Shown here one piece after another: positions 48,409-64,000 of a DNA stretch of 64,000 nucleotides; position 1 is the first letter of the stretch; the number at the start of each line of letters is the position of its first letter. Location of the stretch: NCBI GenBank assembly GCA_022614695.1, contig JAKEIC010000342.1, positions 4,012 through 68,011 of the forward strand, read 5' to 3'. Position numbers and translations under genes: made by a program. Source of the stretch: Planctomycetales bacterium. GTDB lineage: Bacteria > Planctomycetota > JAKEIC01. The notes beneath the pieces are model-generated. The model saw nothing but the letters and a program-made list of their open reading frames with translations. It was not told the origin of the DNA and did no database searches.

Positions 48409-48501
48409 TGGCGGAGAGGCGGGGATTCGAACCCCGGAGGCAGGTATAACCCGCCTAACGGCTTAGCAAGCCGCCGCATTCGACCACTCTGCCACCTCTC
48501 C
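48409..48501 (-). tRNA. tRNA-Ser (anticodon GCU)
   Basis: 93 nt. Acceptor GGAGAGG/CCUCUCC, discriminator G plus encoded CCA. Anticodon loop UUGCUAA. Long variable arm GGCGGG-UUAUA-CCUGCC. T-loop GGGGUUCGAAUCCCC. Confidence 0.85.
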
Positions 48502-48533: not shown

Positions 48534-49103
48534 TCAGAGGGCCGGTTGGCCCAGGACGTAGCCCACCTTCCGCGCCCACTGGGACTCGGGCCAGCGGTCC
48601 ATGATCCGACGCCACGGCTCTTTCGCCGCGTCCAGCTCCTTCTTCTGCCGCACGCGGCTGATCCCCCACCAGTAGCAGGCCTCGGGGGCCCGCTCGGCGC
48701 CGGGGGCGTCGGCCACCTGCCGGAACAGCTCGTGCGCCTCGTCGTAGCGCTTCTCGCCCATCGCGAGGATCGCGCGGCCGAACGTGAGCTCCGGCAGGAG
48801 GTCGCGCGGGGGGAGGTACCCGACCACGAGGTGCGCCGGCCTCTCGTCGGCATCCGTCACGACGAGCCCGGGGAGCCAGCGCACGTTCAGCTTCTTGGAC
48901 AGCTCGATGTGCTTCCCGCTCTCGAGCCTCGCGGGGACGAACCTCTCCGAGATCTCCTTCTCGACGGCCGGGTCTGGATACGTCACGGCATCCATCGTCT
49001 TGCAGCCGAGTCACGTCGGGCTGTGCAGGAAGAGGAAGATCGGCTTCCCGGTCTCCTTCGCCCTCTTGCGGGCCTGGTCCCAGCTCTCGGTCCAGGGGAT
49101 CAT
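48534..49103 (-). CDS. thioredoxin-fold (Thioredoxin_7/DsbD-gamma-like) selenoprotein with U-L-G-C redox motif. In-frame TGA at 49011..49013.
   Basis: ATG 49103 with AAGGAGG SD. MIPWTESWDQARKRAKETGKPIFLFLHSPT-TGA-LGCKTMDAV... continues in the same frame into ORF 48534..48995. TGA sits exactly at the first-Cys position of the family WCxxC motif. Confidence 0.7.
48976..48993 (-). other. SECIS-candidate hairpin 17 nt downstream of UGA 49011..49013
   Basis: GGAUGC-CGUGAC-GUAUCC (6-bp stem including one G-U, 6-nt loop). Confidence 0.3.
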
Positions 49104-61041: not shown

Positions 61042-61214
61042 CCCTCACTCCTCCTCTGAATTCGCGGGGAAGTCTACCCGGGCCCAGGGTTACTGACGAC
61101 CGGACCGGGCCCTCACTCCCTGGGACGGGGCTCCTTCCGCTCCGGTTCCCCTGCCTCTTCTCGTTCCGCGGGAATGGTTTGCGTGGGGATCCGGGATTCG
61201 GTAGCGTCCGGCCC

Positions 61215-62240
61215 GTGGCCCGACTCCTTCGCGTCGCCGCGATCCAGGCCGAGCCGGAGGTCCTCCGCCTTGCGGCCTCGGTCGAGAAGGCCGTGGGCCT
61301 CCTCGACGAGGCGGCGGCCCGCGGGGCGCGACTCGCGGTCTTCCCGGAGACGTTCCTCTGCGCCTATCCGGCGTGGGCCCACGCGAGCCCCTTCGACGAC
61401 CCGGCCGCGAAGCGGGCGCATCGGAGGCTCCTCGAGGAGTCGCCCCGCGTCCCGGGACCCGAGACGGAGCGGCTCGGCGCGGCCGCGCGGGAGCGGGGTC
61501 TGGCGGTCGCGATCGGCGTGAACGAGCGGGCGGGTCACGGGACGGTCCTCTACAACAGCCTCGTCTACATCGGGAACGACGGGAGACTCGCCGGGTTGCA
61601 CCGGAAGCTTGTCCCGACCCACCACGAGAGGACCGTCTGGAGCCCCGGCGACGGGAGCACTCTCGCGCCGGTGACGCTCGCGGGCGCCCGCGTCGGCGGG
61701 CTTCTCTGCTTCGAGAACTACATGCCTCTCGCCCGGTTCTCCCTCTACGCCCAGGGAGTGGAGGTCTACCTCGCCCCGACCGCCGACGACCGCGAGGCGT
61801 GGCAGCACTCCCTCAGCCACCTCGCGCAGGAGGCGCGGGCCTACGTGATCTCGCCCTGCATCCTGCAAAGGAAGTCCTCGTTCCCCGCGGACTTCCCCCT
61901 CCGGAACGACCCCGCCTGGGCGCGCGAGCCCGAGGCGCAGGTGCGCGGCGGGACCGCGATCGTGGCGCCGGACGGGACGGTCCTGGCAGGTCCGGTCTAC
62001 GACCGGGAGGAGGTCCTCGTCGCGGACCTGGACCTCGACCGGATCCCCGAGGAGCGCCAGATCCTCGACGTGGCCGGCCACTACGCGCGCCCGGACGTCT
62101 TCTCGCTCCGAGTGGACCGGACGGCCCGCGACGCCGTCCGCTTCGTCGGCGGCGACGGCCGCGAGCCGGGCCCGCGAGCGCGGAGGCGCGCCGGGAGCCC
62201 CGAGCGCCGGACGCCTCGGCGCCGGCGGGGCGAGTCCTAG
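61215..62240 (+). CDS. nitrilase-superfamily carbon-nitrogen hydrolase (nitrilase/cyanide-hydratase branch)
   Basis: RVAAIQAEP, FPETF, catalytic Cys in LLCFENYMPLAR. GTG 61215 (alt 61179). Confidence 0.8.
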   Translation: MARLLRVAAIQAEPEVLRLAASVEKAVGLLDEAAARGARLAVFPETFLCAYPAWAHASPFDDPAAKRAHRRLLEESPRVPGPETERLGAAARERGLAVAIGVNERAGHGTVLYNSLVYIGNDGRLAGLHRKLVPTHHERTVWSPGDGSTLAPVTLAGARVGGLLCFENYMPLARFSLYAQGVEVYLAPTADDREAWQHSLSHLAQEARAYVISPCILQRKSSFPADFPLRNDPAWAREPEAQVRGGTAIVAPDGTVLAGPVYDREEVLVADLDLDRIPEERQILDVAGHYARPDVFSLRVDRTARDAVRFVGGDGREPGPRARRRAGSPERRTPRRRRGES

Positions 62241-62247
62241 GACCCGA

Positions 62248-63528
62248 TCACTCCACCACCGGCAGCCGGATCTTCTCCCTCTTCCCGCCGCGCAGCACCT
62301 CGATCTCGCAGGTCTTGCCCGCCTGCTGCGTCAGCCGGAACCAGGCCTGGAAATGCAGTTCGCTCTCGAAGTCGGCCTTCGCGGCGGCCGAGAGGACCAG
62401 GTCGCCCTTCTTGATGCCGGCTTTCGCGGCGTTCCGGCCCGTGTGGGCCTCGTCCCCCCAGTCCACGATGTACTGGACCCGGAACGCGAACGCGCCGGCG
62501 GGGAGGCCGGCCTTGGCGACGTCCTCGGGGGAGAGTCTCGGTCCCCCGAACCCGGGCTTCGGGGAGAGCCCCCACATCGAGGCCCGCCAGGAGAGGTCGA
62601 GGGGGGACCCGACTCGCCAGCCGGGGCGCAGCGCGACCTTCCCCTCCTTCGCCTCGCCGCCGCGCTCCCAGGCGAGGGGGAGCGTCCCCCCCGCGAACGG
62701 GGTCTCCTCCAGGACCCACTGCACGTCGGCGATCGTCCGCACGCGTCGCCCCCCAACGCGCGCGAGACGGTCCCCGGCGCGGAGCCCGGCGGCCGCAGCC
62801 GGCGACCGGGCGGCAATCTCCTTCACGAGAGTCTGGTCGGCGGGGTCCAGCGCGAGCCCCACGCGGGCGGGATCGGGCCAGAGCCAGATCGAGTCGCGGG
62901 ACCAGCGCTTCGCGTCCTGCGCCGTCCGCCGCTCCGACTCGTTCACCATGTGGCAGTGGAAGCACTTGGGAGCCTTCCCGGCCTTGATCTGCCTCGCCAT
63001 CGCGGGGATCTGTTCGATGGCGCGGACGGGGGCGGGCTTCGGAGGCCGCGGGCTCTTCCCGTACTCCTCGTGGTCGGCGAGCGTCTCCTTCATCGCGCGC
63101 ACGAGCGACGCGATCGAGAGCCGCGCCTCGGCGGGACCCCCGTCGCGGCCGCCGTACTGGCGGTAGATGGTCCCGTCGCCGTTCATGAGGAGCGCGGCGA
63201 ACGTGAGGTCGTAGTCGAAGCGGAAGACGCCGAGGTCCACCCCGGCCATGTCGAGGACGCGGACGCAGACGTAGTCCTTTGCCGCCTCGACGAACTCCGC
63301 GGGGGGACGGACCAACCGCCCGTCCCAGGACTGGCAGTCCTTTCAGGGCTCTCAGCGGAAGACGGCAAGGAGAGGCTTCCCGGACTGGGCGGCCTCGGCG
63401 CGCGCGAGAGTCAGGTCGGCGCGCCAGGAGAATGCCCCTGGCGCGCCCCCGTCCTGGGCGAGGGCTGGGAGAAGAGCCCCGGCCGCGAGGGCGGCGGGGA
63501 GGAACGCGAGGCGAGAGACGAGCGACAT
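62248..63528 (-). CDS. secreted thioredoxin-fold selenoprotein (two in-frame TGA: ...FR-U-EP-U-KDC) with CXXCH motif and PDZ domain
   Basis: ATG 63528 with GGAGGAGG SD, signal peptide MSLVSRLAFLPAALAAGALLPALAQD, SGKPLLAVFR. TGA at 63354..63352 and 63345..63343 in the same frame as ORF 62248..63315. Then KDCQSW...DYVCVRVLD (Trx_7 body), KCFHCHM, PDZ AAAGLRAGDRLARVGG. Confidence 0.6.
63304..63326 (-). other. SECIS-candidate hairpin 16 nt downstream of second UGA (63345..63343)
   Basis: GGGACGG-GCGGUUGGU-CCGUCCC (7-bp stem, GGUU-containing loop). Confidence 0.3.
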
Positions 63529-63547
63529 GGAGACCTCCTCCAGGATC

Positions 63548-64000
63548 CTAACCCGGCGCCTGCGCCCTCGGTTGGACGTCTCCCGGTCTCGTCCGCCACC
63601 GCCGGTGCATCCACATCCACTGCTCGGGCCGCTCCCGGACGTCGGCCTCGAGGACGCGCGTCCAGGCGAGCGTCGCGGCGCGGAGCCCCTCCTCGCCCGC
63701 CTCGCGCGGGGGGACCGGGATCCTCTCGTGGATCAGGGCCCGGTACCGGCTCCCCTCGCGGACGAGGAAGATCGGCCGGAGCGCCGCCCCCGCCGCCCGC
63801 GCGACGGAAAGCGGGGCGACCGGAGTCCAGGCCTCCGTCCCGAAGTAGGGGACGAAGACCCCCGGCAGGTCCCGCACGTCCTGGTCGGGGAGGATCCCGA
63901 CGAACTGGCGTTCCCTGAGGACGCGGAGGAGTTCCCGCGGGGAGTCGTCCTGGTACACGACGCGGAACCCGAGCCGCGCGCGCAGGCTCTCGGCGATGGC
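63548..64000 (-). CDS. lipid A lauroyl/myristoyl acyltransferase (LpxL/HtrB family), 3'-part (N-terminus beyond window)
   Basis: ILPDQD...GVFVPYFG...ATLAWTRVLEADVRERPEQWMWMHRRW is the LpxL C-terminal signature. Frame open to the window edge. Confidence 0.7.
   Translation of the reverse strand, partial: AIAESLRARLGFRVVYQDDSPRELLRVLRERQFVGILPDQDVRDLPGVFVPYFGTEAWTPVAPLSVARAAGAALRPIFLVREGSRYRALIHERIPVPPREAGEEGLRAATLAWTRVLEADVRERPEQWMWMHRRWRTRPGDVQPRAQAPG

Follow-up and report, generated by a model that had tools for sequence, protein, structure and literature searches.

A predicted two-selenocysteine member of the NF041199 Trx7/PDZ family in a Planctomycetales contig, and a candidate hairpin that accompanies its first UGA

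How does a bacterium read a gene in which two in-frame UGA codons lie 9 nt apart? The question is raised by a minus-strand gene in a 64,000-nt stretch of DNA from a Planctomycetales bacterium (GTDB lineage Bacteria; Planctomycetota; JAKEIC01; GenBank assembly GCA_022614695.1, contig JAKEIC010000342.1, positions 4,012 to 68,011 of the forward strand), referred to here as the window. The comparisons below indicate that this gene very probably encodes one secreted (periplasmic) 426-residue protein of the NCBIfam family NF041199 in which both UGAs are recoded, giving a redox triad, U59-x-x-U62-x-x-C65 (U, selenocysteine, Sec), in a thioredoxin-fold (Trx) active site.

The reading frame extends from an ATG at 63528 to a TGA at 62248, 426 codons with two internal in-frame TGAs, and its translation begins MSLVSRLAFLPAALAAGALLPALAQD...SGKPLLAVFR-TGA-E-P-TGA-K-D-C-QSWDGRLVRPP.... 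After SGKPLLAVFR the codons are TGA (63354-63352), GAG, CCC, TGA (63345-63343), AAG, GAC and TGC (63336-63334), and the motif over both TGAs is F-R-U-E-P-U-K-D-C. The frame then remains open for 364 codons and continues into an annotated 355-aa PDZ open reading frame (ORF; 62248-63315). Both the program-made ORF list and the public gene calls for an identical contig divide the gene in two, a 58-aa ORF and this 355-aa ORF, which is given a TTG start at 63315; an identical copy of the gene lies on contig CCWWUC010000268.1 of GCA_973348535.1. An earlier reading made from the letters of the window and its ORFs (the sequence-only reading) had placed the start at ATG 63528 with a Shine-Dalgarno sequence and a signal peptide, had put both TGAs in the frame of the PDZ ORF, and had pointed out a CFHCH motif. 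These assignments stand: GGAGGAGG lies 5 nt upstream of the ATG, the frame is open from there to TGA 62248, CFHCH is found at residues 189-193, and the N-terminus, MSLVSRLAFLPAALAAGALLPALA-QD, resembles a Sec-type signal peptide as judged by inspection, with equivalent hydrophobic N-termini in the homologs. The gene uses TGA three times, as two putative Sec codons (63343-63354) and as its terminator (62248-62250), and the two hairpins named h1 and h2 come after the internal TGAs only, not after the terminator. Reassignment of TGA was ruled out because the gene itself ends in TGA. The features of the locus, all on the minus strand, are as follows.

62248-63528: whole gene, 426 codons plus TGA stop (reading frame, NF041199 and Pfam matches); encoded in order are a signal peptide, Thioredoxin_7 with U59-E-P-U62-K-D-C65, a linker with CFHCH, and two PDZ domains
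63534-63541: Shine-Dalgarno-like sequence, 5 nt before the ATG at 63528-63526 (direct reading)
63457-63528: predicted Sec-type signal peptide, residues 1-24, with a cut at ...ALA-QD (inspection)
63190-63426: Thioredoxin_7 (PF13899, Trx-fold), residues 35-113 (Pfam, E 2.9e-9)
63352-63354: UGA1, residue 59, facultative Sec position (codon comparison)
63343-63345: UGA2, residue 62, invariant Sec position (codon comparison)
63334-63336: UGC codon of Cys65, which completes the [U/C]xxUxxC triad; lies in the h1 apical loop
63327-63341: h1, AGGACU-GCC-AGUCCU, candidate accessory or second recoding element (minimum free energy, MFE, and centroid folds; comparison)
63304-63326: h2, resembling a Sec insertion sequence (SECIS), GGGACGGGC-GGUUG-GUCCGUCCC (MFE and centroid folds, covariation)
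63313-63315: TTG, annotated start of the 355-aa 'PDZ domain-containing protein', inside the h2 loop (annotation artefact)
62950-62964: C189-F-H-C192-H193 (CXXCH), at the start of a predicted helix (homolog conservation, AlphaFold2 model)
62629-62856: PDZ domain 1, about residues 225-300 (Pfam, model)
62260-62529: PDZ domain 2, about residues 334-423 (Pfam, model)

Are the two TGAs genuine, and are they kept? Eighty species-representative loci were fetched and translated upstream in frame; most belong to Planctomycetota, and Verrucomicrobiota, Armatimonadota and Poribacteria contribute a few. In total 132 loci were compared, namely the window and 131 homologous loci (78 from species-representative genomes and 53 non-duplicate metagenome loci). 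In a set of 77 loci including the window, position 1 (residue 59) is TGA in 43, TGC in 32 and TGT in 2, position 2 (residue 62) is TGA in 77/77, and position 3 (residue 65) is Cys in 73/77. The 53 metagenome loci have TGA (28) or Cys (25) at position 1 and TGA at position 2 throughout (53/53), and two further loci missed by the search pattern agree, L004 with two TGAs and L008 with one. Over the whole sample TGA stands at position 2 in 132/132 loci and at position 1 in 72, the other 60 having Cys (TGC/TGT) there, and TAA or TAG was found at neither position (0/132). An in-frame arrangement repeated over so many loci is far outside what chance would give. The two-TGA form accounts for about 55% of the sampled loci, and in the homologous loci the signal peptide and first half of the Trx domain always lie upstream in frame.

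Since position 1 is either TGA or Cys and never TAA or TAG, the codon comparison identifies the first TGA as a conserved Sec/Cys alternation and not as an error or the mark of a pseudogene. The sequence-only reading had allowed for a sequencing error or an evolving pseudogene at this codon, and the public annotation does present two ORFs, the longer named 'PDZ domain-containing protein'. That the TGA is an error or the sign of a decaying gene, or that the 58-aa and 355-aa ORFs are two real genes, is nevertheless hardly conceivable: the TGA occupies the same codon in 72 loci from independent assemblies, a frameshift is absent, the annotated boundary cuts the Trx domain and places the TTG start inside the SECIS loop, and Cys-form relatives are continuous across the region. 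Homologs with separate Trx and PDZ genes, which the sequence-only reading had said would speak against it, were found nowhere. The best 120 protein-database matches listed (326-374 aa, 78-85% of the query) are all N-terminally truncated like the annotation of the window, and essentially all public homologs are cut at a false TTG/ATG start, losing the signal peptide and the active site.

A search with a profile of the N-terminal 130 residues led to a more distant all-Cys subfamily, ...VVFRCIPCEQCAQLD...SCIHCHQVG, with CxxCxxC and CxHCH motifs, and to one close all-Cys relative with CVPCTDA (P0121). Because these relatives exist, both Sec positions have Cys counterparts; Cys at position 2 is confined to them and never occurs among the 132 loci. 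The all-Cys relatives were found as fragments only, of at most 231 aa, and a full-length all-Cys Trx7 plus PDZ protein was not demonstrated. Four of them, on contigs of 28-192 kb (P0149, P0171, P0178 and P0185), have Arg/Ser-rich, frameshift-like tails near CxHCH, which may reflect misassembly, pseudogenes or another cause. The equivalent of Cys65 is replaced by Ser/Ala in the two-UGA loci L003, L011, L018, L023 and L100 and in P0121, and never in one-UGA loci, the numbers being too small for significance. Because residue 65 is sometimes lost and residues 59 and 62 never are, the 59-62 pair, the CxxU of the literature, may be the essential redox couple.

Is the protein new? Hidden Markov model (HMM) and Pfam searches were run with U written as C, and the NF041199 profile, 'Trx7/PDZ domain-containing (seleno)protein', matched at 410.2 bits (cutoff 300, E 7.7e-123), residues 34-423 aligning to profile positions 2-389 of 390. 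The architecture of that family, Thioredoxin_7 followed by PDZ domains in one polypeptide, is found here, and the U of the published CxxU motif is matched by a Sec codon (TGA, 63345-63343). Given this full-length match to a curated family and the prior literature, the gene belongs to a selenoprotein family that is already catalogued, not to a new one. The family originates with the 'putative secreted serine protease MucD' of the 2008 Global Ocean Sampling study of Zhang and Gladyshev, in which two Sec sequences and twelve Cys homologs shared a CxxU motif (PMC2398784; see also PMC9402790). It was entered in a 2022 review as 'PDZ domain-containing protein, pfam13899, CxxU' (PMC9312934) and is listed in a 2026 review as CxxU with one Sec (PMC13188914), this last being the sole match of a full-text search for NF041199. 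With its two TGAs the gene departs from the one-Sec description (PMC13188914, PMC9312934), not from the HMM. The two-Sec UxxUxxC form is a variant absent from the reviews found, and fewer than half of the sampled loci fit the curated name with its CxxU motif and one Sec. The old name 'MucD serine protease' is misleading, because there is no protease domain.

What could recode the UGAs? The SECIS candidate is h2. In the window its 9-bp stem carries a 5-nt loop, GGUUG, its folding energy is -18.4 kcal/mol, and the MFE and centroid folds both contain it. Its stem begins 16 nt past UGA2, and its apical loop begins 25 nt past UGA2 and 34 nt past UGA1; the sequence-only reading had described such a hairpin with the annotated TTG in its loop, and it was recovered at 63326-63304. 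Published criteria for a bacterial SECIS (bSECIS) are a loop of 3-9 nt, a stem of 4-16 bp and a G in the first two loop positions (bSECISearch, quoted in PMC13188914), together with a distance of 16-37 nt from the UGA and an MFE of <= -7.5 kcal/mol (PMC13188914). The SECIS check that the sequence-only reading had suggested places h2 within every one of these published limits, and its structure is conserved by compensatory changes. Because the h2 loop is 25 nt from one UGA and 34 nt from the other, both are within SECIS range.

Comparison across the family, in which the h2 core is GACGGGC-AGGUU-GUCCGUC, supports the same hairpin. Substitutions that change the amino acid and preserve pairing occur as GAG/GCU, GGCC/GGCC, GCCC/GGGC and UCAC/GUGA, and pairing is also kept as GGCGGAC/GUYCGCC in variants with the peptide FWRTVVRP. 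The mean MFE of h2 is -11.34 kcal/mol, the same in the two-UGA and one-UGA sets, in which 91.7% and 83.6% of cells are paired and 5/7 and 6/7 pairs have double-sided changes, respectively. The covariation score was reached by 0/500 shuffles in each set, and registers slid along the alignment were 25-47% paired. At gathering thresholds Rfam returned no match in the gene region. The sequence-only reading of a Trx-fold/PDZ protein with two Sec residues is therefore upheld by the invariant TGA at position 2, the TGA/Cys alternation at position 1 (its proposed alignment of Cys against Sec gave TGA or Cys there and TGA only at position 2), the covarying hairpin and the all-Cys relatives.

What distinguishes genes with two UGAs from those with one? 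Between UGA2 and h2 lies h1, which starts directly after UGA2, 9-10 nt past UGA1, abuts h2 without a spacer and holds the Cys65 codon in its loop. Over the 19-nt spacer (RNAfold) the mean MFE is -6.07 kcal/mol in 43 two-UGA loci vs -1.43 kcal/mol in 34 one-UGA loci (p 1.3e-12). In a fixed register 4.79 of 6 pairs form in the two-UGA set, with 21/43 loci perfect, vs 2.79 of 6 in the one-UGA set, with 0/34 perfect, and the paired cells amount to 79.8% vs 46.6%. The association seen in the genome set was replicated in the metagenome loci (-5.75 vs -2.38, p 1.8e-6). Position 1 switched state at least 9 times on a neighbour-joining (NJ) tree, and h1 is stabler in the U member in 8 of 9 phylogenetically independent U/C pairs, the remaining pair being a tie (Wilcoxon p 0.004). 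These comparisons show a predicted h1 with a stable fold in genes that have two UGAs and not in those that have one, and make it a candidate accessory recoding hairpin that is not catalogued. Literature searches for tandem bacterial SECIS elements returned nothing beyond the cited reviews.

The peptide KDCxSF is common to many two-UGA loci, the sequences are related, and shuffle controls that count pairs ignore phylogeny, all of which would suit an h1 unrelated to recoding, a by-product of a lineage preference for the amino acids K-D-C-K-S-F in two-UGA clades. Such an origin is improbable. Resampling of synonymous codons from each gene's own usage predicts an h1 of -2.62 in two-UGA genes, where -6.07 is observed, and of -1.49 in one-UGA genes, where -1.43 is observed, so that codon choice favours h1 only in the former. 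The hairpin is also kept with other peptides and in other registers (TSCKTL in L069, PDCSGF in L070, HACQGF in L072, L075 and L077, ADAKAF in L018), eight of the nine independent contrasts point in the same direction, and a second data set gave the same result. Compensatory variants include GGAG/CUCC (L016), GCGAC/GUCGU (L025), CGUCU/AGACG (L069), CCCG/CGGG (L070) and GGAU/AUCC (L052, L058); a doubly synonymous change, GAU/AAA, is seen in L052. Register shifts give GCCU/AGGC with a GNRA-type loop (L072, L075, L077), and in L018 the hairpin is ACGC-GAAA-GCGU, with Cys65 replaced by Ala. A separate small hairpin, GUGG-ACUG-CCGC (-4.3 kcal/mol), occupies the spacer of six one-UGA loci of a Verrucomicrobia-like clade with the motif C-V-P-U-V-D-C-R (L136, L139, L144, L148, L155 and L159), at +12 to +24 past the UGA1 equivalent and in a register other than that of h1.

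How might the two codons then be decoded? SelB carrying Sec-tRNA(Sec) on h2 would decode UGA2 in all members, and UGA1 in two-UGA members would be decoded via the same h2, aided by h1. While UGA1 occupies the A site, h1 would stand at the mRNA entrance of the ribosome and, folded, could shorten the effective distance, leaving about 10 nt or less between h2 and the ribosome; alternatively, the unwinding of h1 could slow the three-codon step while a second SelB complex loads. Less likely, h1 might itself be a weak SelB site. It is proposed tentatively, as a possibility somewhat short of even, that h1 is gained whenever the upstream Cys codon becomes UGA and lost on reversion, and that this is how bacteria decode UGAs three codons apart. 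If true, h1 would be a cis-requirement for inserting adjacent Sec residues that has not been described before, acting as a second low-affinity SelB site or as a device that collapses the spacer or pauses the ribosome, and the secreted thioredoxin fold would carry UxxUxxC as a diselenide/selenenylsulfide triad.

A stronger version, in which h1 is a second dedicated SECIS and the two hairpins bind SelB in tandem, h1 for UGA1 and h2 for UGA2, is unlikely, though it has points in its favour. The minimal E. coli fdhF SECIS element has an 11-nt spacing, which the h1 stem, starting 9-10 nt past UGA1, comes near. The presence of h1 tracks that of UGA1, its shape (a stem of 5-6 bp; loop UGCCA, or GCC if U-A closes) agrees with that of a bSECIS, and a G stands at loop position 1 or 2 in every inspected locus, even where there is no Cys codon (GCGAU in L011, GAAA in L018). 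On the other side, h2 is already in range of both UGAs, and for the UXXU hydrogenases a recent study has the two codons share one SECIS, as a proposal (PMC13582414). The energy, loop and distance of h1 count against tandem elements as well, and are given next with the other points that weigh against the proposed recoding of both UGAs and the part of h1 in it.

At about -6 to -7 kcal/mol (-6.8 in the window) h1 is weaker than the -7.5 kcal/mol of the bSECIS criterion, its loop reads G-C-N and not the usual G-[G/U], and it begins only 15-16 nt past UGA1, no farther than the lower limit of the published 16-37 nt. The hairpin is weak in the two-UGA loci L006, L034, L052, L058, L088 and L091, some one-UGA loci have a different small hairpin in the spacer, and the tree behind the contrasts is a simple NJ tree. 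A single-sequence fold of the UGA region of the window is unremarkable for its composition (z -1.08), and the RNA evidence is entirely comparative. No tRNA-Sec was found within the 64-kb window or in 60 homologous loci, where linkage is not expected. The function proposed below comes from the domains, gene neighbourhood being of no help. Finally, Sec and SECIS-dependent Cys insertion are indistinguishable by sequence alone (PMC13582414).

This last point bears on whether one or both UGAs are read as Cys by a SECIS-dependent tRNA of the tRNA(ReC) type, which would leave a CxxU or CxxC protein in vivo. Genes resembling tRNA(ReC) are over-represented where a genome has UXXU hydrogenases (about 56% vs 2.3%), for which it was suggested that either UGA might be Cys-read (PMC13582414), and Cys is the residue at position 1 in 60/132 orthologs. 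We consider this a long shot for the present gene: no tRNA of that type lies within the window, UGA2 is never a Cys codon in 132 loci, which is hard to explain if it encodes Cys, and the U/C switches at position 1 (at least 9), with h1 co-evolving, suggest a selected difference. Recoding of both UGAs as Sec is the reading retained.

Indirect support for a Sec-decoding organism comes from a second Trx-like ORF in the window with an in-frame TGA (48534-49103, minus strand; MIPWTESWDQARKRAKETGKPIFLFLHSPT-TGA-LGCKTMD...). The sequence-only reading had noted that UGA2, 11 residues past the Lys of GKP, has the same spacing as the TGA of this ORF, and this was confirmed. The C-terminal part of the ORF resembles YbgF/TPR, and with U read as C its scores lie far below all curated NCBIfam selenoprotein cutoffs (best NF041199, 34.6 bits; VPGUxxT type 2, 27.2 bits). 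The ORF may encode a UxxC selenoprotein that is not yet catalogued. Directly downstream of it is a 93-nt tRNA-Ser(GCU) (48409-48501, minus strand), the only tRNA found by Rfam in the whole window, and not a tRNA-Sec.

What would the protein do? Pfam PDZ_2 (PF13180) matches two stretches (E 9.5e-15), and an AlphaFold2 model of residues 63-426 only forms one compact chain (predicted local distance difference test, pLDDT, 94.9; predicted template modelling score, pTM, 0.89), whose tandem PDZ C-terminal half resembles DegQ/DegP/RseP without the protease domain among PDB matches. The Trx part has marginal PDB matches by sequence, the best being TXNDC12/ERp18 at E 0.16, with CGAC falling on U62-K-D-C65; from this weak alignment and the spacing to strand beta-1, the canonical CxxC would correspond to U62-K-D-C65. 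The two Cys and the final His of the CXXCH motif are invariant among 70 homologs, in which conservation of the middle His reaches at least 90%, and the all-Cys relatives have the motif in the form CIHCH/CVHCH. A CXXCH in an exported protein (the signal peptide being judged by inspection) has the sequence hallmark of a c-type cytochrome, and no cytochrome fold appeared among the PDB matches; the motif might bind haem c or a metal, or form a second redox pair. The likeliest role suggested by these domains is that of an extracytoplasmic selenol/thiol oxidoreductase, which would act on exported polypeptides held by the DegP/RseP-like tandem PDZ domains.

The gene is flanked by a convergent carbon-nitrogen hydrolase gene (61179-62240, plus strand) and, upstream on the same strand, by a gene resembling lipid A biosynthesis acyltransferases (63548-63958, minus strand). 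Neither is kept beside the homologs in other genomes, and clustering of the neighbourhoods of 77 loci found no conserved partner gene, the largest cluster being a Ser/Thr kinase at 9 loci.

A UxxUxxC triad in a secreted Trx fold, beside an invariant CXXCH and tandem PDZ domains, points to a kind of extracytoplasmic redox protein not yet explored. It is widespread in Planctomycetota and also occurs in some metagenome-assembled genomes of Verrucomicrobiota, Armatimonadota and Poribacteria. How Sec is inserted at two UGAs 9 nt apart with a SECIS in the coding region is a question raised in 2026 for UXXU hydrogenases. The natural switches between one-UGA and two-UGA orthologs, together with a hairpin that tracks them, make the decoding of adjacent UGAs directly testable, and the two-UGA-specific h1 is a new lead on how bacteria achieve it.

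Among known systems, MamP combines a PDZ domain with a CXXCH magnetochrome; here the CXXCH precedes the PDZ domains, and no similarity to magnetochromes was shown. HtrA-family proteins (DegP/DegQ) have a protease domain that is absent from this protein. TXNDC12/ERp18 (PDB 2k8v, 1sen) and the C-terminal domain of DsbD belong to the same Pfam family, Thioredoxin_7, but lack the residue three positions upstream, Sec and PDZ domains, and the similarity is very weak (E 0.16). Eukaryotic SelL has a UxxU diselenide in a Prx/Trx-like fold and a SECIS in its 3'-UTR and, unlike this protein, is without a PDZ domain, CXXCH or third Cys; by analogy, a diselenide is a plausible oxidised state of the UxxU described here. 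The bacterial SECIS consensus and the E. coli fdhF SECIS are like h2 in their 5-nt G-G/G-U loop, 7-9 bp stem, spacing and MFE, and h2 differs in being within range of two UGAs and in that the UGA2-h2 spacer is itself structured, as h1, in two-UGA genes.

Closest is the NF041199, MucD or 'PDZ domain-containing protein' family itself, which shares the signal peptide, Thioredoxin_7, CXXCH, two PDZ domains and Sec at the second position. In the literature its members have one Sec in CxxU, whereas this gene and the others among the 72 of 132 loci have UxxU followed by xxC and, unlike the published description, carry an extra hairpin between UGA2 and the SECIS. The sequence-only reading had called two Sec codons 9 nt apart unusual, which is fair, although UxxU is known in a few other bacterial families: a thiol:disulfide oxidoreductase that is Prx-like, a metal-binding 'mercuric reductase'-like protein, the FmdB family and the UXXU-type group 4 [NiFeSe] hydrogenases (PMC13582414), all of them protein families unrelated to Trx7/PDZ. 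The hydrogenases resemble this gene in having UGAs 9 nt apart in a CxxC-type motif, U and C spread as a mosaic over the orthologs and, downstream of the second UGA, a SECIS (PMC13582414). They show no difference in SECIS between CXXU and UXXU forms (PMC13582414), whereas here a hairpin specific to the two-UGA genes is detectable.

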